Shown: positions 5,358-55,285 of the stretch, one piece after another
How the letters are laid out: each line of letters begins with the position of its first letter
Position numbering within the stretch: the stretch's first letter is position 1
Assembly (NCBI GenBank): GCA_000092065.1
Contig: CP000581.1
Direction: 5' to 3' (one strand)
Length of the DNA: 64,000 nucleotides
Source of the DNA: Ostreococcus lucimarinus
Lineage: Eukaryota
The notes under the pieces: model-generated
Database searches by the model: none
What the model was told of the DNA's origin: nothing
Seen by the model: only the letters and a program-made list of their open reading frames with translations
Made by a program: the position numbers and the translations under genes

Positions 5358-5475
5358 GTCGGAAGACGACGCGACGCGACGAGAGCGCGCGTGACAATGC
5401 CGACACCGACGCGCTGCGCGCGAGACGTCGACGCGCGACGCGCGGACGACGCGTCGAGGCGTCGAGTCGACGGCG

Positions 5476-6078
5476 ATGACGCGGTCGAGCGCGATGCGCG
5501 CGCTCGCGCGCGCGCGCGCGCGCGTCGTCGCCGCGCGCGCGCGCGGTGGGAACGTTTCGTCGTCGTCAAAGTTCGCGTCGATGACGACGACGACGACGAC
5601 GCGCCCGAGCGACGACGTCACCGCGCGCACGCTGCTCGAGGCGAACGGCAAGCGATTCGACGTCGCGATGCCGCGCGGCGTGGCGCTGCAGGCGCTGTTG
5701 CTCGCGCGAAGCGACGACTTGAAGTGCGTGGACATCATGTGTCAGTGGGTGGGGGACGCGTGCGCGTGCAGGCTCGCGCGCGCGCTCGACAGGCGAGGGG
5801 AGGCGCTCAGGGTGCTGGATGTTTCTGGGAACAGGCTGCGCGCGCTGCCGAGCGCGGTGTGGGCGATGCGGGCGCTGGAGGTGTTGGACGCGAGCGACAA
5901 CGCGTTGACGCCGGCGGACGTCCCGTTCGACGATTTGATGGACGAGACCAAGGATGTGGCGCCGAATCTCAAGGTTTTGAATTTAAGGGGGAACGTGGCG
6001 GTGATAGATGGGTTAGAGGGGCGATTGAGAGAGGTCGTGGACGCCATGGCGCGTCGCGGCGTGAAGCTCGTGTTGTAG
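5476..6078 (+). CDS. Small leucine-rich-repeat protein.
   Basis: LRR units read LRVLDVSGNRLRALPSAVWAMRALEVLDASDNALT...NLKVLNLRGN. Third-codon positions are GC-rich and codon-like. An alternative start is the internal Met near 5578. Confidence 0.5.
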   Translation: MTRSSAMRALARARARVVAARARGGNVSSSSKFASMTTTTTTRPSDDVTARTLLEANGKRFDVAMPRGVALQALLLARSDDLKCVDIMCQWVGDACACRLARALDRRGEALRVLDVSGNRLRALPSAVWAMRALEVLDASDNALTPADVPFDDLMDETKDVAPNLKVLNLRGNVAVIDGLEGRLREVVDAMARRGVKLVL

Positions 6079-6093
6079 TAAAGCGGTTAGCGT

Positions 6094-7284
6094 TTGATTA
6101 AACGTCATTCGTCGTCGCGCATGTCAGCGTCATCGCGTTGCGGTGCGCGAGCCGCCTCGACATCGTCGCCGTCGCGTCATCTCTCGCGTCGCCGCCCTTC
6201 GCGCGCGCGCGCGTCGATGGCGTCGGTTGCCAGCCAGCTCCCGGTGCTGTCGCTGCCGCGAGAAGACGCCGACGAAAACTCACACCGCGCGTTCGCCGCG
6301 GAGCTGTGTCGAACGTGTCACGACGTTGGATTCTTTTATTTATCGAATCACGGCGTCGAGCAGGCGTGCGACAACGTTCTCGACGCGTCGAGGGCGTTCT
6401 TCGCGTTGCCACTGGCTGAGAAGAAAGAGATAGACTACACGCGAAGTCGAGCGTTTCGAGGATACATGTACGACGGCGCCGAAAACACCGCTGGAAAGCC
6501 AGATCGAAGAGAGCAGATTGAATTCGGTGTCGAGTGCGCCGAAACGTGCGCCACCGAAGGGCCATATTACGAGCGATTAAAAGGTCCAAATCAGTGGCCG
6601 GCTCAGGTGCCGCTTCGCGCACCAGTGGAAGATTTCCAAAACAAAATGGCGACGTTGAGTCGAAGAATCATGACTTATTTGGCGATCGGACTAGACCTCG
6701 ACGGCGGTTATTTCGATTCCATGTTCGGCGACGAACCGAACGTGCAGATGAAAATTTGCCGGTATCCGCCGAGCGACGGATCCGTCGGCGAACACAGCGA
6801 CACTGGAATTCTTTCTTTTGTCGTCCAAGACTCGGTCGGTGGTTTGCAAGTGCAGCTTCACGATAGCGGTGAATGGATTGATGCGCCGCCGATCGACGGA
6901 ACGCTCGTCGTCAACTTGGGGGAGATGATTCAACTAATCACCGGCGGCTACTTTCTTGCCACGCCGCATCGCGTTCAAAACCTGAACGGCAGCCAGGCGC
7001 GATACTCGGTGCCTTACTTTTGGAATCCGGAGCTAGACTATCGAGTCGAATTTATAGAGTCCTCCATATTGGACAGTTTGGTTTGGCATCGGCCGCGACC
7101 GTCGGACGATTCCTTCAGAGCGACGGGATCGCACGGCGGCGCGAATCGACTCATCTCAGCGTACGGCGAAAACGCGTTCAAATCGTTCGCACGGTCTCAT
7201 CCCGTAGTCATGCGAAGGCATCATTCAGACTTAGTGATGAACCCCGACGGTAGTATAACTAGTCCTAGCAGCTCAATATTATAA
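6094..7284 (+). CDS. 2-oxoglutarate/Fe(II)-dependent dioxygenase of the isopenicillin-N-synthase/ACC-oxidase-like family.
   Basis: A DIOX_N-like N-terminus (FFYLSNHGVEQ) is followed by a 2OG-FeII_Oxy core with an HxD...H triad (VGEHSDTGILSFVVQD ... ATPHRV) and RYSVPYFWNP. The Ser/Arg-rich first 41 aa may be a targeting peptide. An alternative start is the ATG at 6217 (MASVASQLPVL...). Confidence 0.8.
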   Translation: MIKRHSSSRMSASSRCGARAASTSSPSRHLSRRRPSRARASMASVASQLPVLSLPREDADENSHRAFAAELCRTCHDVGFFYLSNHGVEQACDNVLDASRAFFALPLAEKKEIDYTRSRAFRGYMYDGAENTAGKPDRREQIEFGVECAETCATEGPYYERLKGPNQWPAQVPLRAPVEDFQNKMATLSRRIMTYLAIGLDLDGGYFDSMFGDEPNVQMKICRYPPSDGSVGEHSDTGILSFVVQDSVGGLQVQLHDSGEWIDAPPIDGTLVVNLGEMIQLITGGYFLATPHRVQNLNGSQARYSVPYFWNPELDYRVEFIESSILDSLVWHRPRPSDDSFRATGSHGGANRLISAYGENAFKSFARSHPVVMRRHHSDLVMNPDGSITSPSSSIL

Positions 7285-8154
7285 TCGTTCCGCCGGCGCA
7301 GGAACCGGCGTTTTCTTTTTCTGCGGTAAACTAACTTCTAACGTCACCTTCACGTCATCATCCGCACCGACTGTGGTGATGATGTTCACGCGCTCTTGCG
7401 ACGGCTTTGGAGTTTTCGGCTTCTTCGGTGGCTTGACCTTTTTCGGCGCGTACTTCGTGTTATATCTCGTCATCGCGTCACCAAACTTGTTGTCAAGCAA
7501 CACCTCCTGCAACGCCTCCACGGCGTCTTCCACGGCGCCATTCACCTTGACCGCGTCGTCCTCATCGAACCTCGAAAGCACGTACTCGTACACCGCCGTA
7601 TTTTCATCTTTAGGCCGTCCAATCCCAATCTTAACTCGCGCGAAAGATCTATCGCCGCGCGTCGCGTCGTCGATGACGCTTCGCACACCGTTATGCCCAC
7701 CATGACTCCCGCTCGTCTTCATCCTCAACTCTCCAAGCTTGGTCTCTAAATCATCGTACACGATCACGATTCGCGACTTACCGATCTTAAACGCCCGCAT
7801 CATCTCTCGCACGCTCTTGCCGCTCAGGTTCATAAAAGTCTGCGGCTTCGCCAGAACCACCGCGCTGCGTCCAAGCTTCCCCACCCCGAGCACCGCGCGG
7901 TGCTTCGTCGACGTCAGCTCGATCCCAGCGCGTCGCGCGAGCGCGTCCACGACCTCGAAACCGACGTTGTGTCTCGTGCCGGCGAATTTCGCGCCTGGGT
8001 TCCCGAGTCCACAAATCAACCACGCGTCGCGTTCGACGCCGCGCGCGCCCATCGCGCGCGTCGACACCGCGCGCACCGCGCGCGCGGGCAAGCCGACGAT
8101 CGCCACCGACGCGCGCGCGGTGGCTCGCAGCGCGCCCGCGAGCGCGCGCTTCAT
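7279..8154 (-). CDS. PTH: Peptidyl-tRNA hydrolase (bacterial/organellar Pth type) with an organellar presequence and a Lys-rich C-terminal tail.
   Basis: Motifs are GLGNPGAKFAGTRHNVGF, LAKPQTFMNLSGKSV, VIVYDDLETKLGELRMKTSGSHGGHNGVRS. The track ORF extends to 8730, but that Arg-rich extension overlaps TAF12. I trimmed the start to the Met at 8154 (MKRALAGAL...). Confidence 0.85.
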   Translation of the reverse strand: MKRALAGALRATARASVAIVGLPARAVRAVSTRAMGARGVERDAWLICGLGNPGAKFAGTRHNVGFEVVDALARRAGIELTSTKHRAVLGVGKLGRSAVVLAKPQTFMNLSGKSVREMMRAFKIGKSRIVIVYDDLETKLGELRMKTSGSHGGHNGVRSVIDDATRGDRSFARVKIGIGRPKDENTAVYEYVLSRFDEDDAVKVNGAVEDAVEALQEVLLDNKFGDAMTRYNTKYAPKKVKPPKKPKTPKPSQERVNIITTVGADDDVKVTLEVSLPQKKKTPVPAPAERL

Positions 8155-8337
8155 GCCGCGGTGGCGAGTGGCGCGTGCCGCAGTGCTCGACGCGACGACG
8201 CGAGACGAAGACGAGATGAGCGCGCGACAGGTGCGAACGACGCGACGCGGCGCGGCGCGACGCGACGATGTCGCGCGTCGGGCGACGCGACGATGCGACG
8301 GGCCGCGCGCCGTTCGAATCGATTCGATTCGATTTCG

Positions 8338-9015: not shown

Positions 9016-9082
9016 AAATGTTTTAGTAATCTTCACTTAATTAGTCATACATCATCAAAAGCCGCATCTGTGCGCGCTTCCT

Positions 9083-9553: not shown

Positions 9554-9657
9554 CGCCGCCGGCGCAACTTTCGTCGCCGCTCGCGCATCGCGCCGCGTCG
9601 CGCTCGCGCCATCGCGCGTCGCATCGCGCGCACCTTGGCGTTACACGCCAGCATGTT

Positions 9658-12606
9658 GTGCGCCAGCAGCCGCATCGCGCGCGCGTCGTCGTCGTCGTCG
9701 TCGAACCGTCGCGCTCTGCTGTCTCGTCACTCGCGCGCGCGCGATCGACCATGGTCACCGCGCTCGCGCCTCGCGACCGCGCGCGCGCGCCAGACGTGGA
9801 CGTCGACGAAGCGCGCGCGATAGCGAGCGATCGCGCGGACGCGGAGACGCTCACCGAGGGCGAACGCGTGGCGATCGTCCCGAAGGAATGGTTTGAAGCC
9901 TTCGCGCGGTCGTTCGCGGGCGCGACGTCGATGAAACGCGTGGACGGAGGCGAAGAGGGCGAGAGTGCGGTCGGGGCGATCGATACGCGCGAGTTGTTGC
10001 TCGCGACGGCGTCGACGACGGCGGTGCGGGCGGATGACGACGACGACGCGCGCGACGAGGCTATCCTGAAACCGGCGCTCGCCGAGGGCGTGGACTTTGA
10101 AATCGTGCGCGAGCGAGCGATGGTGAAGCTTGAGGGGTGGTACGGACACGTGGAAGGGTCGAGATCGATTTATAGGACGTGCGTGCGACGGGGGAGTGGG
10201 ATATACGTCGATGTGTATGGATTGGGGTTGGTGGCGAAATTCGGCGACGAGGAGCGAGCGGTGGAGGTGCGAAGGGAGAGCGCGGCGAGTGAGCTCGTGC
10301 GTGTGGTGAAGAAGGCGTTTGCGGCGCTAAAGGACGTGGATGATGCTGATGTGCGCGTGGCAGATTACTTGTACGGTAATCGAGGCGAAGTGCTGACGAG
10401 AAACCCGAGGAAGTTGTTGGAAGAATTTCACCTGTTGCCGGGACAGGAGGTTCTAGTGGAGACGAAATCCGCTGGCGGTTCGTGGAACGAAGACGAGGAT
10501 TCGGTCATAGCGTTGCCGGGAACGAGCGAAGATGAAGTTATGGAAGACACGACTTTTGGATGCGATGTGAGTTTGACGCCAAAGAACGACGTGACGACTT
10601 GCGCTGAGGAGGCAAAAGTAGGAACGAGGGGCAAAGCCGGACTGAGCAATCTCGGGAATACGTGCTTTATGAATAGCGCATTGCAGTGTCTCAGTCACTC
10701 TTCGCTTTTGACGGATTACTTTCTGTCCGATAAATACGAAGTGGACATTAATACGGACAATCCCATCGGTATGGGCGGGGAGCTGGCGAAGGAGTACGCG
10801 AATTTGATAGGCGCACTTTGGCGGGACGGCGCGCTCACGGTCACGCCGCGCAAGTTCAAGTCTTCCTTGGCTCGTTTCGCGCCTCAGTTCAGTGGATATA
10901 TGCAACAAGATGCACAAGAGCTGTTGGCGTTTTTACTAGATGGCTTGCACGAAGATTTAAATCGCGTCAAGAACAAACCGTACGCCACAGAGCGAGACGC
11001 GGAGGGAAGAAGCGACGAGGACGTTGCAAACGAATCTTGGGAAGCACACACGGCTCGCAACAATTCTTGCATCGTCGATACTTTTCAGGGTCAGTATCGA
11101 TCGAAGTTGGTTTGCCCGTCATGCAGCAACAAATCGGTCAAGTTCGATCCGTTCATGTACCTTTCCATTCCGGTCCCGTCGGCTCGTGAGCGCATGATTA
11201 AAGTCACACTCGTATCGTACGGCGACGAACTTTCTGCAATCACGTACGGTTTGAAACTGCCTAAGAATGGTGAGATTGCCATGTTACTTAGTGCTCTATG
11301 CGAAGCCGCTGATATCGATACGATGGACGAACGTGTGGTACTTTGCGAAGTGTACAATCATCGAATGGAAAAGACTCTTTCGAACATGTCCTACTCACTC
11401 ACAGACATCAGAGAACGCGACGTGATATACGCGCACCGCTTACCGGCGATAAAAGACAACGACAACGTGGAAACAGTCGACACCGTTCTTGTGCACAGAA
11501 AAGAGTTGAATCAAAACAAGACGCCGTATTCGCACGTTAGCTCCGTGGCGGCGACGACGATGGTCCGATTTGGCTTTCCGTGGATCGTTCCAGTGAGCGT
11601 GCCAAAAGGCACGAAGGCTGGTCCCGACCACGCGAGATTCGTAGAGAAGGAGGTGGAAAAGTTTAGCGCAAAGTTTGCACACACAAATTCGATGGAGAAA
11701 TCGTGTTCGCCTACCACGAGCGGCGATACAGAAGGAAGTGCGTCTCGACGCGCCGTCGCAGAAAAGGACTCTCGACTCTTCAAAATGAAGTACACGAATA
11801 AGAGCGCCTCGGCATCGTTCCACGAGTATGGTTCAACGACCGCATCGACGTCGGACTCGCACGAAATGCAGTACACCATCGCCTCCTCCATGCATTGCGT
11901 TGCGATAGACTGGTCTTCGAAGGCTCTGAGCCAGTTCTTTGACGAAGAATTGTTGGAGCGTGAAATCGAGGAGCACCCAAGCGTGACGGAGAACGCGATT
12001 GAGAACAGCGGGACTCAAGGCACACCACTAGCGTCGTGCATCGAGTCTTTCATTCAAGAAGAGCCGCTCGGTAAGGATGACATGTGGTATTGCAAGCAGT
12101 GCAAGGACCACGTCCAGGCGATGAAAAAGCTCGATTTGTGGCGCATGCCGCCGATTCTCGTCATGCACCTCAAGCGTTTCAGCTACAGTCGAACGTGGCG
12201 AGATAAGATCGATACGTTGATTGATTTTCCACTCAACACGCTTGACATGACGCCTTACGTACTCCCGAACGCTTCCAGTGGGCCGGCGCCGATTTATGAC
12301 TTGTACGCGGTGGTGAACCACTTTGGCGGCATGGGCGGCGGTCATTACACCGCGTACACGAGACACGCCGAGGAGGGCACGTGGCACTTGTACGACGATA
12401 GTCGTTGTACCGCAGTAGACGTCGGTGCGGCGCTGAACAACAGCGCGGCTTACGTCTTGTTCTACAAGCGCCGCGACGTCCCGATGCGCCAAGCCATGTC
12501 TCGCGCCGGCTCGCTGTGCAACATGGCCGCCATGGACAGCGTCGCGAACACGCGTACCCCATGCGACGACGACGACGACGAACCTAGAGAAATGGAACTC
12601 AACTAG
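9658..12606 (+). CDS. Ubiquitin carboxyl-terminal hydrolase with DUSP-UBL-USP architecture, USP4/11/15-like.
   Basis: An N-terminal DUSP-like stretch reads VAIVPKEWFEAFARSF. The Cys box is GLSNLGNTCFMNSALQCLSHS, with QQDAQELLAFLLDGLHEDLN, and the His box is YDLYAVVNHFGGMGGGHYTAYTRH. An alternative start is the Met at 9751. Confidence 0.9.
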   Translation: MRQQPHRARVVVVVVEPSRSAVSSLARARSTMVTALAPRDRARAPDVDVDEARAIASDRADAETLTEGERVAIVPKEWFEAFARSFAGATSMKRVDGGEEGESAVGAIDTRELLLATASTTAVRADDDDDARDEAILKPALAEGVDFEIVRERAMVKLEGWYGHVEGSRSIYRTCVRRGSGIYVDVYGLGLVAKFGDEERAVEVRRESAASELVRVVKKAFAALKDVDDADVRVADYLYGNRGEVLTRNPRKLLEEFHLLPGQEVLVETKSAGGSWNEDEDSVIALPGTSEDEVMEDTTFGCDVSLTPKNDVTTCAEEAKVGTRGKAGLSNLGNTCFMNSALQCLSHSSLLTDYFLSDKYEVDINTDNPIGMGGELAKEYANLIGALWRDGALTVTPRKFKSSLARFAPQFSGYMQQDAQELLAFLLDGLHEDLNRVKNKPYATERDAEGRSDEDVANESWEAHTARNNSCIVDTFQGQYRSKLVCPSCSNKSVKFDPFMYLSIPVPSARERMIKVTLVSYGDELSAITYGLKLPKNGEIAMLLSALCEAADIDTMDERVVLCEVYNHRMEKTLSNMSYSLTDIRERDVIYAHRLPAIKDNDNVETVDTVLVHRKELNQNKTPYSHVSSVAATTMVRFGFPWIVPVSVPKGTKAGPDHARFVEKEVEKFSAKFAHTNSMEKSCSPTTSGDTEGSASRRAVAEKDSRLFKMKYTNKSASASFHEYGSTTASTSDSHEMQYTIASSMHCVAIDWSSKALSQFFDEELLEREIEEHPSVTENAIENSGTQGTPLASCIESFIQEEPLGKDDMWYCKQCKDHVQAMKKLDLWRMPPILVMHLKRFSYSRTWRDKIDTLIDFPLNTLDMTPYVLPNASSGPAPIYDLYAVVNHFGGMGGGHYTAYTRHAEEGTWHLYDDSRCTAVDVGAALNNSAAYVLFYKRRDVPMRQAMSRAGSLCNMAAMDSVANTRTPCDDDDDEPREMELN

Positions 12607-12704: not shown

Positions 12705-13925
12705 ATGTCCGTCGTCGTCGACGACGACGGCGACGCTCCGGCGCCATCGCCACTAAAATTTCGAATCATCGCCACGGACGGTCGCGCTCGCGCGACGTCG
12801 CTGACGCTTCCGCATCACGAATGTTTCACGCCGATGTTCATGCCCGTCGGTACGCAAGGCTCGGTGAAAGGCTTGACGAGCGCGCAGCTGGAGGCGATCG
12901 AGTGCCAGGTGATTCTCGGGAACACGTATCACTTGGGAAATCGCCCCGGGGCGGACGTGCTCGCCAAAGCCGGCGGTCTGCACGGGTTCATGAACTGGCG
13001 TCGAGCGATGCTCACCGACAGCGGCGGGTTCCAGATGGTGTCGCTGCTTGATTTAGCGGATATCACCGAGGAAGGGGTGACGTTTCAAAGCCCGACCGAT
13101 GGGAAACAGATGTTACTCACGCCCGAGCGAAGTATTCACATACAGAACGATATAGGGGCGGATATCATCATGGCGTTGGACGACGTGGTGTCGAGCGTGA
13201 CGGCGGACCGAGCGAGGTTCGAGGAGGCAACGCATAGAACGACGCGGTGGATAGATAGATGCATCGCGGCGCACAAGCGACCGCACGAACAGTGCTTGTT
13301 CGGCATCGTGCAGGGGGGGTTAGACTTAGATTTGAGAGATGTATCGCTGGAAGGGTTGTTGGCGCGCGGCGACGCGTTGCCGGGCATGGCGGTGGGCGGT
13401 TTAGCTGGCGGCGAGTCCAAGGAAGATTTCGTGCGCGTCGTGTCGCACTGCACGGCGAAGTTACCCGATCACAAACCAAGATACGTCATGGGCGTGGGCT
13501 ATCCGTTGGATTTAGTGTTGTGCACCGCGCTCGGGGCGGACATGTACGACTGCGTGTACCCGTCGCGCACGGCGCGATTCGGCACGGCGCTCGTGCCCGA
13601 GGGCGTTCTTCGACTGAAGAGCTCCGCTCTCGAACACGACCACCGGCCTATCGACGAAACGTGCGACTGTTTGACGTGCAAAACGTACACGCGCGCGCAA
13701 ATGCACGCCATCGCGACGAAGGAGCCTCGCGCGGCGCAGTTGCTCACGATTCACAACTTGCGCTATCAAATGCGTCTCTGCGCCGCGATGCACCACGCCA
13801 TCGTCGAGCAACGTTTCGCCGATTTCGTTCGAGATTTCATCGAGAAGCAGTATCCCGACGACACCGCCCCACCGTGGGTGCGTCAAGCGTTGGAGTACGC
13901 CGGAATTACCCTTCGCGTCGCGTGA
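12705..13925 (+). CDS. QTRT1: Queuine tRNA-ribosyltransferase catalytic subunit.
   Basis: PMFMPVGTQGSVKGLT, LGNTYHLGNRPG, LTDSGGFQMVSL and the zinc site CDCLTCKTYTRAQMH align with QTRT1 over the full length. Confidence 0.9.
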   Translation: MSVVVDDDGDAPAPSPLKFRIIATDGRARATSLTLPHHECFTPMFMPVGTQGSVKGLTSAQLEAIECQVILGNTYHLGNRPGADVLAKAGGLHGFMNWRRAMLTDSGGFQMVSLLDLADITEEGVTFQSPTDGKQMLLTPERSIHIQNDIGADIIMALDDVVSSVTADRARFEEATHRTTRWIDRCIAAHKRPHEQCLFGIVQGGLDLDLRDVSLEGLLARGDALPGMAVGGLAGGESKEDFVRVVSHCTAKLPDHKPRYVMGVGYPLDLVLCTALGADMYDCVYPSRTARFGTALVPEGVLRLKSSALEHDHRPIDETCDCLTCKTYTRAQMHAIATKEPRAAQLLTIHNLRYQMRLCAAMHHAIVEQRFADFVRDFIEKQYPDDTAPPWVRQALEYAGITLRVA

Positions 13926-14010: not shown

Positions 14011-14502
14011 ATGGGCGCCGCGAAATCGAAATCAGCGTCCATCGTGAACGCGTCGAAACCCGCGCGCGCGCTCCCTCGTCCCGGCGCGACGCCCATCGCG
14101 CCGTACGTCCCGCCCGACACTTTCGTCCAGGCGTCCCCGGTCGACGACGCGCGAGCCGACGACACCGCGCTGCGCGAGATGATGTCCAAGCTCGTCGTGC
14201 GCACCACCGATGTCTCCGCGGAGGACTACGGCTACGCCCCGTCGCCAGCGAGCGCGGTGAAGCGAAGGGAACCGCCGGGGACGGAGGCGCTGCTGAAGCC
14301 GCGCGACGTCGCCGAAGCGCTCGAGCGACACCGCGCGAGCGCGTTCTCAGACGCGATCGTGGAAGAGATCGCGCGAGAACGACGCGGAAAGTTAGATTCA
14401 AAAGTGCTGGGGCTGATGATGAAGCACGTGCGCGCGCACGCGTACGCGGAGGAGGAGGACGAGCGGCGGCCGGGCGGGACGCTGCGCGTCGGGAGATGGT
14501 AG
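14011..14502 (+). CDS. Hypothetical protein with an N-myristoylation-type N-terminus (MGAAKSKS).
   Basis: The ORF is 13945..14502 and the internal ATG at 14011 gives MGAAKSKSASIV (an MGxxxS motif). Third-codon positions are coding-like. No family was recognised. Confidence 0.4.
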   Translation: MGAAKSKSASIVNASKPARALPRPGATPIAPYVPPDTFVQASPVDDARADDTALREMMSKLVVRTTDVSAEDYGYAPSPASAVKRREPPGTEALLKPRDVAEALERHRASAFSDAIVEEIARERRGKLDSKVLGLMMKHVRAHAYAEEEDERRPGGTLRVGRW

Positions 14503-18600: not shown

Positions 18601-19103
18601 TCGTTCTGAAACTTGGTATATCTCCCATCGTTCACCCGCATGCCGTCCGCGTTCTCGTACACCTTGTTCGTCAACGGCTTCACCGGGTACACCCCCGTCT
18701 CCACCGTCCCCGCGAGCCCGTAATCGATCGATTTGACCGTCGTCGCCGCCGCCGGCGACGCCTTCGCCCGCGCCGTCTCCCGTCCCGGCGCGCGCAGCGC
18801 ACCATTCACCGGCTTCGCGTCGCCTCGCACGCCTCGTCGCGCGTGCACCGACCGCTTCGCATCGCTCGTCTTCATTCGCCGCGACGTCGGCATGACGCCC
18901 CCTGTGCTTCGCGTCGTCGCGCGATCGACGCCCGTCTTCACCGTCGCCGACGTGCTCGCGCCGAGCGCTTTCGCACCGCGCGCGATGACATCGCGCACGA
19001 CGTCGTGCCGTCGTCCCATCGCGGAGAACCCGTCACCACTCGCGCGCGCGCGTCGCGCGATGCCGCGCCCGTCGGCGTCGTCGCGTCGCCGTCGCGACGT
19101 CAT
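15690..19103 (-). CDS. Fused FAD-linked oxidase / 4Fe-4S / CCG-domain dehydrogenase, an algal-type glycolate (D-lactate) dehydrogenase with GlcD and GlcF fused.
   Basis: FAD_binding_4 (VVKIHNETEVKKVLPVAAENETPVTFRAAGTSLSGQAV) and an FAD-oxidase C-terminal domain are present. The ferredoxin motif is CMECGFCESNCPTRD and CCG motifs include CCGMAGDRG. The ~1100-aa fused architecture is the one known for Chlamydomonas glycolate dehydrogenase. The Arg-rich N-terminus is a possible mitochondrial presequence or an over-extension. Confidence 0.85.
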   Translation of the reverse strand: MTSRRRRDDADGRGIARRARASGDGFSAMGRRHDVVRDVIARGAKALGASTSATVKTGVDRATTRSTGGVMPTSRRMKTSDAKRSVHARRGVRGDAKPVNGALRAPGRETARAKASPAAATTVKSIDYGLAGTVETGVYPVKPLTNKVYENADGMRVNDGRYTKFQNDIKSIIPEERIYTDPVKTFAYGTDASFYRLLPQAVVKIHNETEVKKVLPVAAENETPVTFRAAGTSLSGQAVSDSILLKLSHTGQNFRKYEIKGDGSEITVEPGLILGEVNRLLQAHKIKGGHDVQYKMGPDPSSIDSCMIGGVVANNSSGMCCGVSQNTYHTLKDMRIVFVDGTVLDTSDQASRESFMRTHKPLVEGVQALARRVQADEELTALIKKKFAIKCTTGYSINALVDHPVDDPIEIIKRLMIGSEGTLGFVSQATYKTVVDHPHKASAFIVFQDVEDACKAAAVLRRETDVDAVELFDRASLTQCEGHEKIMNLVPTIKEAPKYGAALLIECRGATDEELNKGISAVEKSIDNAGVRFLHPRTEKYPFSKEEDVYKVYWDVRKGLIPMVGSSREAGTSVLIEDVACEVDKLGNMTKDLIAMFEKFGYDDASCMGHALEGNLHLVFSQGFRTDEEVKMYSAMMQEMCEIVAVKYQGSLKAEHGTGRNVAPFVEMEWGTKAYDIMWELKELFDPNYVLNPGVILNRDPHVHEKNLKPKPVADPIVDMCMECGFCESNCPTRDVSLTPRQRITVYREISRLQAIEPNTRTKEDQSRLDEFLDIFAYAGNSTCAADGMCEVKCPVGINTGELVKSIRNREMETARSAKSMAGMVARNFGAATSVVPPLLNTVSMAHGILGEGVLKGVSKMLNKASGAMIPVWNPYMPTGAPKLPAPLPARADAAPSKGIPRKVVYLPSCVTRMMGPVKGEEANGGVADAMMSILDKAKYEVVYPEGLNSQCCGMIFNSRGLKDQSLAKGYDLEQALLKASEGGKYPIIVDTSPCLAQIKEQLESPELRFALYEPSEFIANHLIDKLEWNKVKKHIAVHVPCSSKKMGVEQTFMKLASKCADEVSGSGIPCCGMAGDRGMRYPEITDSALGYMNLPKGCTDGYSTSRTCEVNLSNHADGVPFRGLVYLVDEATSPKK

Positions 19104-19384
19104 CGCGCGCGCGATGGGTCGATCGCGGCGCGCGAACCTCGATCGCGCGGGTCGATCTCGATCGCGCGCGTTATCGGAACGGAAGGCCCCCTATCGTCGA
19201 AATCCGCGCGCGATCGCGCGTATTCTACGTGTAACGAACGGGATTAAAATCAATGCGTCATGCGCGTAATCATGCACGACGATAAAACCGCGCGGCGCGG
19301 GATCGGGCGGTCGGTCGCCGCGCGCGACTCCACGCGCGCGCGCGCGCGACGCCGCACTCTTCGCATCCGACGACTATCGACACG

Positions 19385-20957
19385 ATGCTCGCCTCCGCTT
19401 CCACGTTCACCGGCGTCAAGGTCGTCGCGAAGGCGACCGCCAAGACGACCGTCGCCAAGCGCGCCGCGTGCGTGACGCGCGCGGGGCAATACGACGATGA
19501 ATTGCTCGAGACCGCGGTGCGCGCGACGACGCGACGCGACGCGACGCGGGACGACGCGATGACGCGGTGATGCGCGCGCGACGCGCGCGGGAATCCGGCG
19601 ATGCGCGCGGGAGTTGGGATGGAAAATATTTTCGCGTCGAACGCGCGCGGGCGCGGCGGTCGGGGGGGGCGCGCGCGTCGGGGGGGGGCGACGGCGCGAC
19701 GGCGCGAGATCGGATAGGGTTGTTCGGGCGAGGGTGATAATCCATCAATCCATCGATCGAAACGACTCGCGTCGCGACGGAATCGATCGAACGCGGTGAC
19801 TGACGAGGATGGAAACGCGATTCGCGACGCGCGCAGACCAACATGACCAAGCCGGGTAAGGGTATCCTCGCCATGGACGAGTCCAACGCCACGTGCGGTA
19901 CCCGACTCGAAGGCGTCGGGGTCGAAAACACCGAAGAAAACCGCCGCCGCTACCGCGAGTTGCTCATCAGCACCAAGGGTATGGGCGAATACGTCGGCGG
20001 TGCGATTCTCTTCGAAGAAACCTTGTACCAATCTTGCAAGGATGGCACCTCGTTCGTCGACGCGCTCCGCAAGGAAGGCATGTACCCGGGTATCAAGGTT
20101 GACAAGGGCCTCCGGCCGCTCGCCAACTCCAACGGCGAGTCTTGGTGCCAAGGTCTCGACGGCCTCGCCGAACGCGCGGCTGAGTACTACAAGCAAGGCG
20201 CGCGCTTCTGCAAGTGGCGCTCCGTCGTCTCCATCCCGGCCGGTCCGTCCAAGATCGCCGTGACGGACTGCGCTTACGGCCTCGCCCGCTACGCGGCCAT
20301 CTGCCAAAACGCCGGTCTCGTCCCGATCGTCGAACCGGAGATCCTCCTCGACGGTGACCACGACATCGACCGCAACTTCGAAGTCGCCTCCATGGTTTGG
20401 GCGGAGACCTTCAAGTACTTGGCCGACAACAACGTCAAGTTCGACCGCATGCTCTTGAAGCCGTCCATGGTTGCCCCGGGCGCCGACTGCACGAAGAAGT
20501 CCAACGCCAAGGAAGTCGCCGCGTACACCTTGAAGATGCTCAACTCCCGAGTCCCGCCGGAAACCGCGGGCATCATGTTCTTGTCCGGTGGCTTGTCCGA
20601 GTTGGACTCCACCATGTACTTGAACGCCATGAACCAGCAACCGAACCCGTGGCACGTGTCTTTCTCGTACGCGCGGGCTCTTCAAAACTCGGTACGTATT
20701 TTTTTTTGTGAGCGCCTCGTCACGCGTCTGAGAAGCGTCTGAGAATCGCGAGAATAACGCGTACTGACGACTGACGAACACTTATAACGCGCCAGGTTAT
20801 TAAAACGTGGGCGGGCGATGATTCTCGAACCGCGGAAGCGCAAGAAATCCTTCTCCGCCGCGCTCGCGAGAACTCTGAAGCGCAACGCGGCGTCTTCGAC
20901 GTGACGAAGTCGCAGACGGAAGGTTCTTCGATGTATGAGAAGGGCTACGTGTACTAA
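19385..20957 (+). CDS. FBA: Class I fructose-bisphosphate aldolase, plastid type, three exons 19385..19516, 19837..20691 and 20796..20957.
   Basis: Exon 1 (MLASASTFTGVKVVAKATAKTTVAKRAACVTRAGQYDDELLETA) is a targeting peptide plus the conserved ADELVKTA stretch. Exon 2 reads TNMTKPGKGILAMDESNATCGTRL...IVEPEIL...LKPSMV. Exon 3 reads VIKTWAGDDS...YEKGYVY*. The introns run GTGCGC..GCGCAG (320 nt) and GTACGT..CGCCAG (104 nt). The joins reproduce the plant plastid FBA alignment. Confidence 0.85.
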
Positions 20958-34886: not shown

Positions 34887-34902
34887 GGGGTCGTAGCTCA
34901 AA

Positions 34903-34944
<42 letters not shown>

Positions 34945-34959
34945 TACTTGGCGACTCCA
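34887..34959 (+). tRNA. tRNA-Ala(AGC).
   Basis: GGGGTCGTAGCTCAAATGGTAGAGCGCGCGCTTAGCATGCGCGAGGTACCGAGATCGATACTTGGCGACTCCA folds as a cloverleaf. The acceptor stem carries the G3:U70 alanine identity pair, the anticodon loop is CTTAGCATG and a T-loop ATCGATA is present. CCA is not encoded. Confidence 0.85.
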
Positions 34960-39616: not shown

Positions 39617-40396
39617 ATGTTCGCCCTCGCGCCCGCGTTCGCGCCTCGCGCGCCCGCGTCTGGCGCGCCTCGCGCGTCTGGCGCGCGTCGCGTCGTCGTC
39701 GCGCGCGCCGCCGCGCCGTCGCCGTCGTCGTCGTCGTCGTCGCGTCGCGTCGCGCTCGCGCTCGCGTCGTCGCTCGCGGCGTTCCTGCGCCCGCGCGCGA
39801 GCGACGCGGCGTACGGCACGAGCGCCGGGGGTTCGAGCGACACCGACGCGAGCGACTTGACGTGGGGCACGTTCTACGGCGCGGCGAACCCGCCGGCGAC
39901 GTACGGGACCACGGGCGGGACGACGAAGTCGCTGGCGAAGTACTCGTACGACGTGCCGAGCTCGTGGGTCGAGGAAGCGACGACGAAGGTGGAGAAGGGA
40001 AGCGGCGGACAAGACTCTCGATGGGTGAAGAGAGGCTCGCGAGGAGAGGAAAAAGCGTACCTGCTGACGCTGAACAGGGCGGGTCAGGATGGGGCGGCGT
40101 TCGAGCTCACGGACGCGTCGCTGCAAGCCGTGGCGGGAGCGCTCAGCGAGATGCAAGATTCGATCGCGTCGGGACGCGTGACGAGTCGACGCGATACCGA
40201 GGACGGTAGGGAGTACGCGCTGTTCGATGTCGACGCCGATCGAAAGTACACGGTGAAGATCTCGATCGACAACACCGGGAGACTGTTCGCGTTCGTCGTC
40301 ACGGCGCCGGCTTCGCAGTTTAATCGCGATAAAAAGGTGCTCGATAGAATGGTGGATTCGTTTCGGATTTACACCAGCGCGTCTCAGTTTGTGTAA
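39617..40396 (+). CDS. PsbP-domain protein (thylakoid-lumen PsbP-like) with a twin-arginine signal.
   Basis: The N-terminus is Ala/Ser-rich with RRVALALASSLAAF (RR followed by a hydrophobic stretch, Tat-like). The PsbP-family pattern is ...YSYDVPSSWVEE...KAYLLTLNRAG...EYALFDVDADRKYTVKISIDNTGRLFAFVVTAPASQF. Confidence 0.6.
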   Translation: MFALAPAFAPRAPASGAPRASGARRVVVARAAAPSPSSSSSSRRVALALASSLAAFLRPRASDAAYGTSAGGSSDTDASDLTWGTFYGAANPPATYGTTGGTTKSLAKYSYDVPSSWVEEATTKVEKGSGGQDSRWVKRGSRGEEKAYLLTLNRAGQDGAAFELTDASLQAVAGALSEMQDSIASGRVTSRRDTEDGREYALFDVDADRKYTVKISIDNTGRLFAFVVTAPASQFNRDKKVLDRMVDSFRIYTSASQFV

Positions 40397-40444: not shown

Positions 40445-41380
40445 TCATCGTCGCCAGAGATCGAGCGGAACGTATTCGCGATCGGAATCGACGCGAAGCG
40501 GAATCTGCTCCAAGCCGTATTTTTCGCACAACGCGTCTGTGAGAAACGTCCCCGCGACGACGTGCGTTTGCGCCATGCGCTTCACGCGAGGTCGCGGTTC
40601 GCCGCGCGCGGGATCGTCCAACGTCGCGCAGCACTGCTTCGGCGCCGTGAGCGAGACGAGCAAGTCGGGGACGAAGATGTCGCCGTCGTCTGGCGCGCCC
40701 GCGTCGACGTCCCAACCGCTCGGAATGTCCAAGCTCACCGTGAACGTCTCGCGCGCGTCCCCGTTCGTGAGCGCGACCAACGCGTTCAAAACATTCACGA
40801 ACGGCGCTCGCACGGCGCCTTTGAATGAAAAACCAAACAGAGCGTCGACGAAACATCGCGGCGTCGCCGCCGCCGACGTCGCGCGCTCCCGCATCATCCC
40901 CAACACCGCGTCCTCGTCCACGAACTCCACGTTCGCCGTCTCTCGACACTCTCTCACCAACTCGCCGTACAATTCGTTCGTCCCCGCCCCCTTCGGGTAC
41001 CACACCGACACCCGCGCGTCTCTTCGCCGCGTCGCGACCTCTCGCGCCAGCGCCAAACCGTCCCCTCCGTTGTTCCCCGGTCCGCACAGCACCACGAAAT
41101 CCGTCCCCCCGAACGCGTCCAACGTCGCCGTCGCCGCCGCGCGTCCCGCCGCGCGCATCAGCGCCTCCAACGACCGCGCCTCGCACGCGCGTCCCGCCGT
41201 CAAGTCCTCGTCCAACCGCCTCGCCGCGTCGCTCGTCAAAAACGCGCCGTCGCGCGCGCGTCGCGCCCGCGCCGGCGTCCCGGACGCGCCGCGCGTCCGC
41301 ATCCGCGCGCGCGCCGCCGCGCGCGCGCGCGCGATCGCCGTCGCCGTCGCCGCGCGCGCGCGCGCGTCGCGCGATGCCAT
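40445..41380 (-). CDS. NAXE: NAD(P)H-hydrate epimerase with a YjeF-N domain (AIBP/NAXE).
   Basis: FVVLCGPGNNGGDGLALAREV and FTVSLDIPSGWDVDAG match NAXE. I trimmed the start to the Met at 41380; the ORF extends to 41599. Confidence 0.8.
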   Translation of the reverse strand: MASRDARARAATATAIARARAAARARMRTRGASGTPARARRARDGAFLTSDAARRLDEDLTAGRACEARSLEALMRAAGRAAATATLDAFGGTDFVVLCGPGNNGGDGLALAREVATRRRDARVSVWYPKGAGTNELYGELVRECRETANVEFVDEDAVLGMMRERATSAAATPRCFVDALFGFSFKGAVRAPFVNVLNALVALTNGDARETFTVSLDIPSGWDVDAGAPDDGDIFVPDLLVSLTAPKQCCATLDDPARGEPRPRVKRMAQTHVVAGTFLTDALCEKYGLEQIPLRVDSDREYVPLDLWRR

Positions 41381-41539
41381 CGATCGCGTCGTCGATCGAT
41401 CGATCGCCCGCCAACCTCGATCGCGGTTCGCCGACGCCGGGTTCGCGAACCTCGATTTTCGCCCCGCGCGGTGGCGCGCGGGGCGGTGCGACGCGTCGGC
41501 GCGCGGTGCGACGCGCGTCACAACACGCGCGACGCCGCG

Positions 41540-42344
41540 ATGAGCGACGACGAGCACGACGTGGAAACGTTCGAATCCGCCGATGCGGGCGCCTCGCACA
41601 CCGTGCCCATGCAGGCCGGGTCCGTGCGCAAGGGCGGCTTCATGGTGCGCCGACGACGCGCGACCGAGGACGCGACCCGATGCGCGATCGCGCGACGGCG
41701 GGGGGGGCGACGGGCGCGGCGAAGCGCGCGCGCGAGCGACGCGAGGCAGAGCGATGGGAAAGAAATGCGCGCGCGCGATAGGGGGAGGCGCGGGCGAGGC
41801 GCGCGCGCGGTGGGGCGAGGGAGGCGACTTCGCGACTTCGCGACTTGGGGTTTATCGCGGGGTAACCCTGTTTGGACGCGCGCGGGGCGGCGCGAACGCG
41901 AGCGCGATGGACGACGACTGACGATGCGCCGGGCGCGATGTTGAATGATAGGTGATTAAGGGTCGCCCGACCAAGGTGATCGAGGTCACGACGTCGAAGA
42001 CGGGGAAGCACGGGCACGCGAAGTGCCACTTCACCGCGCTCGATATTTTCACCAACAAAAAGGTTGAAGAACTCGTGCCGTCTTCGCACAACCTTGAAGT
42101 GCCGATCGTGAACCGGGTAGAATACACTTTGTTGGATATTGATGAGGATGACCACATGTCTCTCATGGATGATAAGGGAGACACGCGTGAAGACTTGAAG
42201 CTTCCGGGGGGACACGCGGAGGCGGAAAAGTTAGCCGAGGATTTGCGCACCGCGTTCGACGACGGCAAGGAAGTGCAAGTGACGATTTTGTGCTCCATGG
42301 GTATCGAACAAGCTCACGCGATTAAGGAAGTGAACAACTCTTAA
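41540..42344 (+). CDS. EIF5A: Translation initiation factor eIF-5A, two exons 41540..41644 and 41952..42344.
   Basis: Exon 1 (MSDDEHDVETFESADAGASHTVPMQAGSVRKGGFM) joins through a 307-nt GTGCGC..GATAG intron to exon 2 (VIKGRPTKVIEVTTSKTGKHGHAKCHF...), which carries the hypusine site GKHGHAK. The join reproduces RKNGFVVLKGRPCKIVEM from human eIF5A. Confidence 0.9.
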
Positions 42345-48567: not shown

Positions 48568-49092
48568 TCACACCGCCGTCTTTCCCGACAGGCACAAATC
48601 AACCTTCTCCAGCAAATTCCCATTCTCCAGCGCCGCCGCCACGCGTTCCTTATCGTTCAACTGTTTATTCACCGCCCTCTCGCTCGCGTGCGTTCCCGGC
48701 GCGATCACCACGTCCACCTTGAACCTCCTCGGCAGCGTCCGCAGCAGCTTCACGCGAATGCTCAGCCCGATGAGCGTCGCCATCGAGCAGTGCGGCACCG
48801 TCGGCGTGAACTCCACCCGCACCCGATTCCGCGCGTCATCGCACTCGATCGCGCTCGCGCCGACGACGTTCAGCCGTTCGAGCGAGTACGGGTGCTCGGG
48901 GTCGTTGATGTCCCGCACGTGGTCAAAGATTTCGAGCGCGTCGACGGCGTCGCGCGTCGTTTCGTCGCCCTCTCGCGCCGCGCGCGCGTCGCGCGCCGAC
49001 GCGCGGTCGCGCGCGCGCGCGTAGACGATCGGTTCGGGGTTTATGAAGCCACCGCGCGCGTCGTCGTCGTCGTCGTCGGCGTCGGCGCGCAT
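48568..49092 (-). CDS. CIA2: MIP18/CIA2/FAM96 cytosolic Fe-S assembly protein (DUF59).
   Basis: [24 protein letters not shown]...[22 protein letters not shown]...[16 protein letters not shown] is the MIP18-family signature. I trimmed the start to the Met at 49092 ([10 protein letters not shown]...); the ORF extends to 49749. Confidence 0.85.
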
Positions 49093-49153
49093 CGTCGAAC
49101 GCCAATCGAATCGAACGCGCGACAGTGACGACAGACGGCGACGCGACGCGCGG

Positions 49154-49299
49154 ATGACGACGACGACGGCGACGGCGCGCGCGGCGACGACGGCGACGAC
49201 GGCGCGCGCGGCGACGACGGCGCGAGGCCGCGCGCGGCGCGCGAGGACGACGCGCGCGGCGCGGTGCGACGGCGACGGCGACGGCGAGGACGACGCGCG

Positions 49300-49330
<31 letters not shown>

Positions 49331-52807: not shown

Positions 52808-52945
52808 ATCGCGCGTTCGTGTCGGCGCTTTCGAGACGGCGCGCGGGCGCGCTCGACGACGTGTGCGGAGACCTCACGCATGGTTGGCGTTGGCGCGAGT
52901 AATCCAAACCAGAGCGCGCGGCGGCGAGCGAAGTACAAAAGTCAA

Positions 52946-55180
52946 CTACAAATGTCTACCGGCCACGCGGTGGGGCTCGGGAATGAGCGCCTTGGTGCGC
53001 GATAATCGAGCTACCGTGACGAGCTTGTTGTCGATGGGAATGCTCGGATCGGCGAGCTCCAAGACGTCGATGCGCACCGAACGCCACTCGTCTCGCGAAA
53101 AGAGATGTTGATGACGTTGAATGGCCTGGTACAATGAATTCAAGGCGTAAATTAACATGCCTTGCTGCACCGATCGACGCTCAGCGATCTTTAAGCTGGT
53201 TAAGGCGCGCTCGGCTTCGTGAAGGAGCATGCGCATCTCTTCCCGATGTTTCGAGCGACGACGATGAGCGGAGAGCGAGAGCGACGCCTTCATCGCGAGC
53301 ACCGTGGTGTACATGCCGAGAGCCGCGGGAAAACAAGCCATGAGGGAAAAGTTAAGGCGGTTCGCCCGCATGAGTTGATCCATTTGCATCAACGCACCTT
53401 CCATCTCTACTTTCATGACTTGCGTTTGTAGGAGAAGCAGTTGCATGAGATCTCCTGCGAGCATGTTCGTCAGCGGACTCTTGAGTTCTTCTTCGACACG
53501 AGCCGTCACGAGGCGCGTCGGGTCGGGGGTGACTAAGACCTTTTCTTCGCCCTCACCTTTGCTTCCGCCGCCCACGGACTTGTATGCGCGATAGAGAGAT
53601 TCAGAGTAACCCGGTCTCGACGCTTGTTTCGTGTATTCACCGAGCATGCGATCAAGAGACGCCTTACTTTCTTCCAATCTCTCTATCGCGTCGTCCGGGC
53701 GATCTGAGACAAACGCCGCCTTGAGCTCATCTCGCAACTCTTTCACGGGATCGAGAATGCGCATCTTCAGGAACGTGATGAATGCAGCCTTCGCCGCGTG
53801 TAACGTGTTATCCAGATCATCGCTTCCACACAGGCGACTGTGACGAATCATCACCGTCGTCGAAATCACAAACGTCGCGCTGCCAATCGTGTACAGCAAC
53901 CACCGTCTGACGTGCTTCGACGGCTTCGCGTGAACCTCCAAAGCATCGTGCGATGAGTCGCGAACTTCCGACCACTCTTGCTCGACGCGATTCAACGCCT
54001 GCCAAATCGTATCATTCACCTTTGGCAGAGAAAGTGGCCGACCGTTGACGACGAGAGGCTGTCGGAAGCGATGCGCGACCGCGGCGTCTTCGGGCTGCTT
54101 GCTCAAGTCCATGCTCGCCAACCGCTGCAAGCGGCTCAAAGGACGCGTCGGTCCCGGAGACAGATCGCGATCAAAGTCACCACTCGATCGCGTACTCGAC
54201 CGTGGTGTGGGCTCGGGCAAATCGGGCATCATATCTCGCAACCGCTTACCGTGACTCAATCGATGCAGAGACTTTAACAACTTTGGCGAGTCTCTCGCCG
54301 CGAGCCGCGACGAATTTGACACTTTTGCCAAGTCTCCCACGGTTTCTCTCGACTTCGTCGCGTACTCTTTCACTTGTTCTAAACACTCTAATAAGCCATC
54401 CGTGGCCTCGATGATCGCCTGCCGCGTCATCTCTCTCGACTCACCGCCCATGCTCGCGCTCAACGAACTCTCCCCGCTCGCGTTTGCGACGGTGTCCGCG
54501 TGATGATGCACGCGGCCGACGACGCTGGCCAAGCTCACCTGCAACTCATTCAACGCGTTCACTCGCCCATCGATGATCACTCGCGCGCTCGCGCTCGGAA
54601 GCGCAAACTTTGCGTCCGTCCCGTTCAACGCCGCGCGCGCGTGACACCATAAACGATACGTCCCTTCCCTCGCGAGCGCCACGAAATTACTCGGCCCCGT
54701 GTTGAACAGCAAAAACCGCGCCTGCCCGCTCGGTCGATCTCTCAACACCTCCCAAAAGCTCAGCGAGCTCGTCGCGACGTGTAAATCAAGCAACAACTCC
54801 CGACTCATGTCCTGCGCGAAAAACAACGTCGCTCGCGCGGCGTGTCCGAGGTCGCTCGCCTCGCTCGCCTCCTCCGCTCTGCTTTCGTCGCCGTCGAGCG
54901 CCGCCGACACCGCGAACGCGTCCCTCCACCACACCGCGCTCGCGCCCGTGCGTCCATCCTTATCGAAAAACACCGGCAGCGATTTCACCGCGCGCGCGCT
55001 CCTCGCGCCGCGCTCTCGCGCCCTCGCGCGCGCGTGCGTCGCTCGCTTTCGCAGCTCCTTGGCCACGTCCCAAAACGACCCGTGCTCCCCTCGCGCCCGG
55101 CGCTTCTCCTCGGCGGCGTCCAGGACGTCGCGCGCGACGTCCCTGAACAACCGCCGCACCGGCGGTCCGTCGCTCGCCAT
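52946..55180 (-). CDS. Membrane protein, tentatively NCA2-like (nuclear control of ATP synthase).
   Basis: The ORF is 744 aa after trimming to the Met at 55180 (MASDGPPVRRLFRDV...). The C-terminal region has hydrophobic helices (NFSLMACFPAALGMYTTVLAMKASL) and conserved-looking blocks (MLIYALNSLYQAIQRHQHLF, EWRSVRIDVLEL). The family assignment is weak. The first 212 aa of the track ORF are Arg-rich and were rejected as an over-extension. Confidence 0.4.
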   Translation of the reverse strand: MASDGPPVRRLFRDVARDVLDAAEEKRRARGEHGSFWDVAKELRKRATHARARARERGARSARAVKSLPVFFDKDGRTGASAVWWRDAFAVSAALDGDESRAEEASEASDLGHAARATLFFAQDMSRELLLDLHVATSSLSFWEVLRDRPSGQARFLLFNTGPSNFVALAREGTYRLWCHARAALNGTDAKFALPSASARVIIDGRVNALNELQVSLASVVGRVHHHADTVANASGESSLSASMGGESREMTRQAIIEATDGLLECLEQVKEYATKSRETVGDLAKVSNSSRLAARDSPKLLKSLHRLSHGKRLRDMMPDLPEPTPRSSTRSSGDFDRDLSPGPTRPLSRLQRLASMDLSKQPEDAAVAHRFRQPLVVNGRPLSLPKVNDTIWQALNRVEQEWSEVRDSSHDALEVHAKPSKHVRRWLLYTIGSATFVISTTVMIRHSRLCGSDDLDNTLHAAKAAFITFLKMRILDPVKELRDELKAAFVSDRPDDAIERLEESKASLDRMLGEYTKQASRPGYSESLYRAYKSVGGGSKGEGEEKVLVTPDPTRLVTARVEEELKSPLTNMLAGDLMQLLLLQTQVMKVEMEGALMQMDQLMRANRLNFSLMACFPAALGMYTTVLAMKASLSLSAHRRRSKHREEMRMLLHEAERALTSLKIAERRSVQQGMLIYALNSLYQAIQRHQHLFSRDEWRSVRIDVLELADPSIPIDNKLVTVARLSRTKALIPEPHRVAGRHL

Positions 55181-55285
55181 CGCGCGTCGCGAGGCGACGC
55201 GCGTCGCGCTCTGGCGTCGCCGCTCGCCCGCCGTCGCGTCGACCGGGACGGTCGCGTCCCGCACCGCGCGACGCGCGCGCCCGCG
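55181..55285. promoter_or_regulatory. Putative ~105-bp bidirectional promoter between the NCA2-like gene (minus) and the JmjC/NTase gene (plus).
   Basis: The genes are divergent and both starts were trimmed to the first ATG that does not overlap the neighbour. Confidence 0.3.

Follow-up and report, generated by a model that had tools for sequence, protein, structure and literature searches.

The 64-kb stretch of DNA analysed here, referred to below as the window, comes from the nuclear genome of the green picoalga Ostreococcus lucimarinus CCE9901, and contains approximately 37 protein genes together with one real tRNA gene, tRNA-Ala(AGC), at a density of about one gene per 1.7 kb. Among these are ten pairs of neighbours arranged head-to-head, that is, on opposite strands with facing 5' ends and no gene between them, and it is the short spacers within these pairs (Table 1), and their suggested role as compact bidirectional promoters, that are considered here. 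The gene map combines a six-frame table of open reading frames (ORFs) and their codon-position GC content with Pfam scans and gene calls at orthologous loci. Orthologous regions came from two O. tauri assemblies (L005 and L013) and from other Ostreococcus clades (L006, L009, L010, L012, and L014), and more distant, Mamiellales-like contigs (L007, L008, L015, and L016) were also compared. The proteins encoded by TGT (tRNA-guanine transglycosylase, 12705-13925) and AHA1 (25313-26368) are identical to XP_001415533.1 and XP_001415864.1, respectively, both entered as 'predicted protein' of O. lucimarinus CCE9901, and many contigs from marine metagenomes, with 99.8-99.98% identity to the window, encode them too. 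Protein identity, gene density, and a mean spacer below 200 bp all place the window within a compact nuclear genome of the Mamiellales (Ostreococcus type).

A preliminary description of this DNA, made from its letters and ORFs, had proposed ten divergent pairs, and the gene map confirms exactly ten divergent junctions. All 20 of the genes concerned are real and 19 of them match Pfam families. The Pfam scan found no family for the remaining gene, referred to as 'acidic', which lies opposite AHA1; the core of this gene (26699-26881) retains 85-90% DNA identity to three other Ostreococcus genomes, and in the O. tauri annotation it is a spliced gene of 174 aa. Within the window it spans 26583-27156, where the conserved core (...PEEYQRAVPSRRPDIFPDLKEPKTPMPRPMPGDPEMPG...) is followed by a (GAA)n tract encoding poly-Glu at 27086-27156.

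The 36 junctions between neighbouring genes in the window divide into 10 divergent, 10 convergent, and 16 tandem. The divergent share (28%) is that of random orientation, for which 25% is expected, and no excess of divergent junctions was found across the window (binomial P(>=10) = 0.41); switches of strand, at 20 of 36 junctions, are similarly unremarkable (P = 0.31). The binomial test rejects an excess of divergent pairs, and the over-representation of head-to-head pairs that characterizes mammalian genomes is not seen here. The pairs had been called 'pervasive', a word that implies such an excess and does not survive these counts. The divergent spacers are not unusually short either. Their median, initially mapped as 171 bp, falls to 134 bp once their boundaries are corrected, compared with medians of 135 bp for tandem spacers and 73 bp for convergent spacers, and mean values are 156-189 bp for the divergent and tandem classes (156-180 bp for the divergent class) and 69 bp for the convergent class; divergent spacers are at least as long as tandem ones and twice the length of convergent ones. 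Across the ten pairs the facing start codons are 61-335 bp apart, so that the transcription start sites of paired genes would lie nearer to one another than that, unless their 5' untranslated regions overlap. Annotated, curated models of O. tauri give a comparable range, 53-327 bp, for six of the same ten spacers. We consider it very likely that the ten short pairs are the outcome of random gene orientation combined with the extreme compaction of the O. lucimarinus genome, and that they represent its normal layout: about a quarter of neighbours lie head-to-head because the choice of strand is effectively random, and every class of intergenic spacer in the window is short.

Locating the spacers precisely depends on the correct identification of start codons and first exons. 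Intervals had been given for nine of the pairs, and eight of these are flanked by ATG on both sides; the ninth, 9554-9657 between TRM112 and USP, has GTG at both ends. This interval falls inside TRM112, covering parts of its intron and first exon. The canonical N-terminus of Trm112, MRLLAHNMLACNAK, is encoded by the 14 minus-strand codons at 9675-9634; a 224-nt GT...AG intron follows and the second exon opens with GVVNGFPLKI. The spliced protein of 121 aa matches the Pfam Trm112p profile over 4-40 with 40.8 bits, compared with 27.6 bits over 17-40 for the unspliced version. Three species (the window and two other Ostreococcus clades) share exon 1 and its ATG, whereas the sequence that surrounds them is not conserved. 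ORF callers that are blind to introns miss this exon and return an ORF of 155 aa with a spurious acidic N-terminus.

A similar arrangement is likely for TAF12. A candidate mini-exon, ATGAGCGCGCGACAG (MSARQ), lies at 8216-8230 and is followed by GT. Because MSSRQ followed by GT is present at the equivalent site in L010 and L012, amid sequence that otherwise cannot be aligned, TAF12 probably has a first exon of five codons starting at ATG 8216, and this would shorten its spacer with PTH from the 183 bp first proposed (8155-8337) to 61 bp. The preliminary description had itself counted it against its own reading if part of a supposed upstream region proved to be intron or exon; this is so for TRM112/USP, and probably for PTH/TAF12. 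Its general range of 60-280 bp for all of the shared upstream regions is exceeded by COX5b/RPS13 (335 bp), the one pair to which it had assigned no coordinates. The start of glycolate dehydrogenase (GlcDH) is less settled: a 45-bp deletion (19063-19107) takes away ATG 19103 in L001, a population variant that is 99.9% identical to the window, where the gene call begins 28 codons later, and the true start may be 19019. Among the contigs L001-L004, the CGATCG-rich GlcDH/FBA repeat at 19063-19149 carries the 45-bp deletion in one and a duplication in another. The left boundary of the PGBD/LRR spacer is uncertain because the NCBI model of PGBD is shorter (355 aa), and the start codon of the second PsbP-like gene (PsbP2) is uncertain because its N-terminus consists of a (GAC)n-type repeat (49127-49324).

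The corrected gene models also show that the spacers are not, as had been stated, the only non-coding space available to these genes. Introns of 118-320 nt occur within the first ∼45 codons of at least five of the 20 paired genes (TRM112, FBA, PSMB6, COX5b, and eIF5A), with TAF12 a probable sixth, and they are similar in length to the spacers themselves. Many introns are known to remain in O. lucimarinus despite its compaction, with an excess in highly expressed genes (PMC2367439), and the 5' introns of FBA, eIF5A, PSMB6, and COX5b in the window resemble this pattern.

Table 1. Coordinates of the head-to-head spacers, the conserved block upstream of RPS13, and the first exons and 5'-proximal introns of paired genes.
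Feature	Position	Strand	Length	Remarks
PGBD/LRR spacer	5358-5475	-/+	118 bp	ATG on both sides; Pfam PG_binding_1 and LRR
PTH/TAF12 spacer	8155-8215, probably	-/+	61 bp	PTH ATG 8154; candidate TAF12 mini-exon 8216-8230
TRM112/USP spacer	9676-9750	-/+	75 bp	TRM112 ATG 9675; first in-frame ATG of USP 9751
GlcDH/FBA spacer	19104-19384	-/+	281 bp (365 bp if GlcDH starts at 19019)	4 CGATCG
AHA1/'acidic' gene spacer	26369-26582	-/+	214 bp	AHA1 ATG conserved; 82 bp in O. tauri
PSMB6/NAPRT spacer	31499-31648	-/+	150 bp	PSMB6 exon 1 at 31498-31381
COX5b/RPS13 spacer	36014-36348	-/+	335 bp	COX5b ATG 36013; 308 bp in O. tauri
NAXE/eIF5A spacer	41381-41539	-/+	159 bp	eIF5A ATG conserved; 327 bp in O. tauri
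CIA2/PsbP-like 2 spacer	49093-49153	-/+	61 bp	140 bp in O. tauri; not alignable between species
NCA2/JmjC/NTase spacer	55181-55285	-/+	105 bp	53 bp in O. tauri; not alignable between species
Conserved block upstream of RPS13	36206-36255	+		AAAGCCCTAAAA 36206-36217, CGATCG 36226-36231, CCGTCTTTTC 36246-36255
TRM112 exon 1 and intron	exon 9675-9634, intron 9633-9410	-		Contains the earlier 'spacer' 9554-9657
TAF12 intron (probable)		+		Conserved MSARQ/MSSRQ and GT
FBA first intron	19517-19836	+	320 nt	Spliced N-terminus ...DELLETA|TNMTKPGKGILAMDES, typical of class-I aldolase
PSMB6 intron	31380-31263	-	118 nt	
COX5b intron	35986-35805	-	182 nt	Exon 1 at 36013-35987
eIF5A intron	41645-41951	+	307 nt	

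The head-to-head spacers, together with the first 100-200 bp of the adjoining coding sequences, form a zone that is rich in GC, CpG, and tandem repeats. GC content is 0.72 in the divergent spacers and 0.59 in coding sequence, with observed/expected CpG ratios of 2.07 and 1.57, respectively, while convergent spacers are AT-rich (GC 0.41). Both GC and CpG peak between about -100 and +200 relative to the ATG. Local GC and CpG rise above the flanks in the divergent spacers, as in a CpG island; unlike mammalian CpG islands, however, they do not stand out from a CpG-depleted background, since CpG is over-represented everywhere in the window. Arrays detected by Tandem Repeats Finder make up 24% of the divergent spacers, and account for 13.9% of the bases within 200 bp of start codons compared with 1.5% elsewhere. 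The GC-rich repeats at the 5' ends of genes have periods of 2-32 (for example at 5113-5545, 8023-8293, 26191-26645, 39621-39795, 41251-41517, 48973-49324, and 54989-55394), and they reach into N-terminal coding regions as low-complexity stretches rich in Ala, Arg, and Asp. The AHA1/'acidic' spacer holds two tandem copies of a 32-bp repeat at 26421-26487.

Within such a composition, short palindromic words have to be judged against what their dinucleotides predict. CGATCG is present in five of the ten divergent spacers, with 16 copies (8.9/kb compared with 1.2/kb in coding sequence); five of the copies, some of them within (CGAT)n, are in the NAXE/eIF5A spacer. Shuffles of the spacers that preserve dinucleotides give 10.0 +/- 2.8 copies, and 5 of 200 shuffles reach 16. 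Across the whole window the 95 copies observed match the 94 expected, and the density of GATC is flat, at 4-6.5/kb, from -600 to +600 around start codons. Runs of GCGCGCG, at 37/kb in spacers compared with 7/kb in coding sequence, reach z = 2 against shuffles. The earlier observation that both words recur in the spacers is correct for CGATCG in half of them, where it is denser than in coding sequence, but the recurrence is mostly compositional; CGATCG, which is absent from the other five spacers and close to compositional expectation, is largely ruled out as a specific over-represented motif.

An unbiased screen of k-mers returned the 10-mer GCGAACCTCG as its top word, present in three of the ten divergent spacers. 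Exact copies lie at 19132, 26452, and 41445 in these spacers, all on the plus strand, with another at 60010 in the coding sequence of ACCase; the word, or its core GAACCTCG, also forms the palindrome AACCTCGATCGCGGTT at 41413-41428. With one mismatch allowed, 19 copies were observed and 18 were expected, as by chance. The core was not found in the orthologous spacers of other Ostreococcus species, and GCGAACCTCG was rejected as a conserved element; it could be a promoter element specific to this lineage. The dinucleotide ApT has an observed/expected ratio of 1.74 in divergent spacers and 1.04 in coding sequence, an enrichment that is not robust in 100-bp positional bins and was retained as no more than a speculative pointer to N6-methyladenine (6mA).

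Comparison with relatives shows that gene order is well preserved and that the sequence of the spacers is not. Within Ostreococcus the whole window is collinear, with the ten head-to-head pairs and every tandem and convergent junction kept. In the more distant contigs the surviving head-to-head junctions are PTH/TAF12, TRM112/USP, and PSMB6/NAPRT, the last of which is retained in O. tauri, L006, L009, and the Bathycoccus-like L008. The same distant contigs also keep the convergent junctions TAF12/TRM112 and ECH/GlcDH and the tandem arrangements USP-TGT and AlkB-DEAH-PSMB6, and other junctions of each class are broken. Because convergent and tandem junctions are conserved equally, this synteny is not specific to head-to-head pairs, and preferential conservation of head-to-head linkage was not found in either Ostreococcus or the distant contigs. 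Local differences between the contigs include short interstitial runs of telomere-type CCCTAAA in L007 (4786-4833, between the convergent TAF12 and TRM112) and L008 (404-475), and two histone genes, one of the histone-fold type and one for H2A, inserted head-to-head downstream of TGT in L015 (11581-12744), an insertion that interrupts the otherwise conserved PTH/TAF12-TRM112/USP-TGT block.

Nine of the spacers, all but GlcDH/FBA, which lacked usable matches, were aligned across Ostreococcus genomes, in most cases three of them and at most four. The flanking coding sequences are sharply conserved in these alignments, while the spacers are essentially unconserved and contain many indels; for PGBD/LRR, the arrangement is the same in L010 and L012 and the spacer sequence cannot be aligned between species. 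Slippage and indels make this 5' zone evolve fast, with almost no conservation between congeners. In eight of the comparable spacers the cross-species alignments revealed no conserved element. The ninth, COX5b/RPS13, contains the only well-conserved island among the divergent spacers compared.

This island lies upstream of RPS13, whose ATG at 36349 is invariant across four species, and its three elements (Table 1) are conserved in four Ostreococcus genomes, with counterparts in L005 at 14052, L006 at 14615, and L009 at 9801. The elements precede the RPS13 ATG by about 95-140 bp. The first of them, ARCCCTAA, lies roughly 140 bp from this ATG, or some 210 bp in L006, and occurs once in the window and once each in L005, L006, and L009, always upstream of RPS13. 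As judged from these alignments, the block is an oriented putative element at a fixed distance from RPS13 and not a central element shared by the two genes. Promoters of plant ribosomal-protein genes have an architecture in which a telo-box (AAACCCTAA) is combined with a pyrimidine-rich initiator. The RPS13 block, in which a telo-box-like ARCCCTAA is followed by a C/T-rich CCGTCTYTYC block, resembles this arrangement. It differs from the plant telo-box in that the copy in the window reads AGCCCTAA rather than AAACCCTAA, and in that the putative element belongs to one gene only.

It is reasonable to suppose that both genes of a head-to-head pair have their initiation regions in the spacer, because the two start codons have nothing else between them. 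That the spacers must function as compact bidirectional promoters, as had been asserted, does not follow; the sole clear footprint is oriented and proximal to RPS13. Probably each spacer is one short, open promoter region that houses a pair of closely spaced core promoters firing in opposite directions, with gene-specific elements adjoining the gene to which they belong, as with the block upstream of RPS13. The frequent 5'-proximal introns would provide additional regulatory room, and CGATCG and the GCGCGCG runs would be mainly a by-product of composition and repetitiveness and not a shared bidirectional element. An arrangement of one open region with two core promoters fits with the depletion of 5-methylcytosine at CG and the enrichment of 6mA reported at gene starts in O. 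tauri (bioRxiv 10.64898/2026.07.10.737489), and with the lower frequency of bidirectional elements in Ostreococcus than in yeast that was concluded from a genome-wide footprinting study (Piganeau et al. 2009, as summarised in PMC2850359).

Several points weigh against this interpretation. Whether a spacer holds two independent core promoters or a single shared one is itself something that we infer. An additive model of spacer length, in which convergent spacers measure 2T, tandem spacers P+T, and divergent spacers either 2P (two promoters) or P (one shared promoter), gives a split answer with ten spacers, as medians favour two promoters and means favour one. The start codons of PGBD, LRR, NAXE, PsbP2, JmjC, and USP are tentative. 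Inside the spacers CGATCG is ∼1.6-fold above dinucleotide expectation, and some copies may be functional, to judge from the one that is conserved upstream of RPS13 in four species.

Different models can be proposed for how transcription is accommodated in so little space. One is that transcription units overlap, with many starts and regulatory elements outside the spacers, in the coding sequence of the neighbour or in 5' introns. We regard this as possible, and hold it only tentatively. Transcription could start inside a neighbouring gene; at least five paired genes (six with the probable TAF12 intron) have 5'-proximal introns, and the zone rich in GC, CpG, and repeats extends ∼200 bp into coding sequence. 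Convergent coding sequences themselves overlap in the window, where the stop-codon ends of the convergent genes for a 2OG-Fe(II) oxygenase (plus strand) and peptidyl-tRNA hydrolase (PTH, minus strand) share 6 bp (7279-7284). Overlaps between expressed sequence tags have also been reported in O. lucimarinus, where transcripts from opposite strands overlap across short spacers (PMC2367439), but those overlaps involve the 3' ends of transcripts.

A true shared bidirectional promoter, with the spacer acting as a single regulatory unit whose elements (CGATCG, for example) drive and co-regulate both genes, is on balance unlikely. A distance of 61-335 bp leaves little room for two separate promoters, and the mean divergent spacer is close to the value of P inferred from the tandem and convergent means. 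CGATCG is 7-fold denser in spacers than in coding sequence and, being palindromic, has no orientation; it is nevertheless missing from half of the spacers and near compositional expectation. All of the pairs are kept across Ostreococcus and three extend to distant Mamiellales-like contigs, but tandem and convergent junctions are conserved just as well. Divergent pairs are not in excess, no pair has an evident functional link, and conserved central elements are lacking from spacers in which the only clear footprint is oriented and proximal to RPS13. Published footprinting (Piganeau et al. 2009, cited in PMC2850359) also suggests fewer bidirectional elements than in yeast.

It is improbable that the short spacers are artefacts of annotation, with mis-called starts in GC-rich, open ORFs concealing real spacers that are longer: ORFs do stay open far upstream of functional starts in this genome of 60% GC, N-terminal regions are low-complexity, Ala/Arg-rich and unconserved, PGBD has 355 aa in the NCBI model and 495 aa in metagenome gene calls, and the GlcDH start codon is polymorphic, but starts that are fixed by conservation (RPS13, eIF5A, AHA1, TRM112, and probably TAF12) give spacers as short or shorter, and the curated O. 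tauri models give similar lengths for the same pairs.

Other features of the window lie outside the paired spacers. The tRNA-Ala(AGC) gene (34887-34959) sits within a 619-bp gap between a RING/SAP gene and COX5b, and is predicted at the corresponding position in three further loci of Ostreococcus. Another prediction, tRNA-Ala(CGC) at 5113-5189, would split the N-terminus of PGBD and is a false positive of ARAGORN in a GC-rich repeat; it scores below Rfam's threshold for tRNAs and has no counterpart among the predictions for L010 and L012. A scan of the window for sigma-70 promoters and intrinsic terminators found nothing, these being bacterial-type signals that do not apply to a eukaryote. At 14011-14502 is a gene for a protein of 163 aa that has no Pfam match and whose cluster has members of 163, 177, or 191 aa; these steps of 14 residues suggest variation in the copy number of a 42-bp coding repeat in natural populations.

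Bidirectional head-to-head pairs of genes have been described in mammals and plants, with starts less than 1 kb apart and a spacer rich in GC and CpG. The spacers in the window are alike in composition, and the distances between their start codons suggest that the transcription starts would also lie within 1 kb. Mammalian bidirectional pairs are over-represented and their members are often co-expressed. The pairs considered here differ from the mammalian ones in that their frequency is that of random expectation, their sequences are unconserved, and their linkage is not preferentially kept. Within the genus, O. tauri and O. lucimarinus are described as having less than 200 bp between genes and one gene every 1.6-1.7 kb (PMC2367439, PMC2850359), and a survey of O. 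tauri lists 2288 bidirectional transcript pairs (PMC4035068). Whether head-to-head spacers share regulatory elements was also asked, for O. tauri and O. lucimarinus, by Piganeau, Vandepoele, Gourbiere, Van de Peer, and Moreau (2009, J Mol Evol 69:249, cited through PMC2850359 and PMC3673656); compared with that genome-wide study, the present analysis is confined to ten spacers and brings in three or four additional genomes of Ostreococcus, recovered from metagenomes. Bias in intergenic GC content and orientation-dependent footprints in Ostreococcus were also described in 2009 (cited in PMC3673656 and PMC2850359).

The analysis carries some general cautions for the reading of such compact genomes. 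Start codons in 5' regions rich in GC and repeats are unreliable. Tiny first exons followed by introns of 118-320 nt are common, as demonstrated for TRM112 and probable for TAF12, so that what looks like a 'shared upstream region' may turn out to be an intron. Before palindromic, CG-rich words are called motifs, they need a local dinucleotide baseline. There is a very slim chance that the ApT-containing palindromes CGATCG and (CGAT)n, concentrated in about half of the 5' spacers, are preferred substrates for the promoter-proximal N6-adenine methylation reported to peak at gene starts in O. tauri, an idea drawn from the weak, position-unstable excess of ApT and from the single conserved CGATCG upstream of RPS13; if it were true, these palindromes would help to mark the short open region where both paired genes start. 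The finding itself is an ordinary one, as compaction, the counts of head-to-head pairs, and orientation-dependent footprints have been known for Ostreococcus since 2006-2009. The compaction of these genomes was described for O. tauri by Derelle et al. (2006) and for O. lucimarinus by Palenik et al. (2007), as summarised in PMC2367439 and PMC2850359, and the window is a typical sample of it, with no substantive difference.

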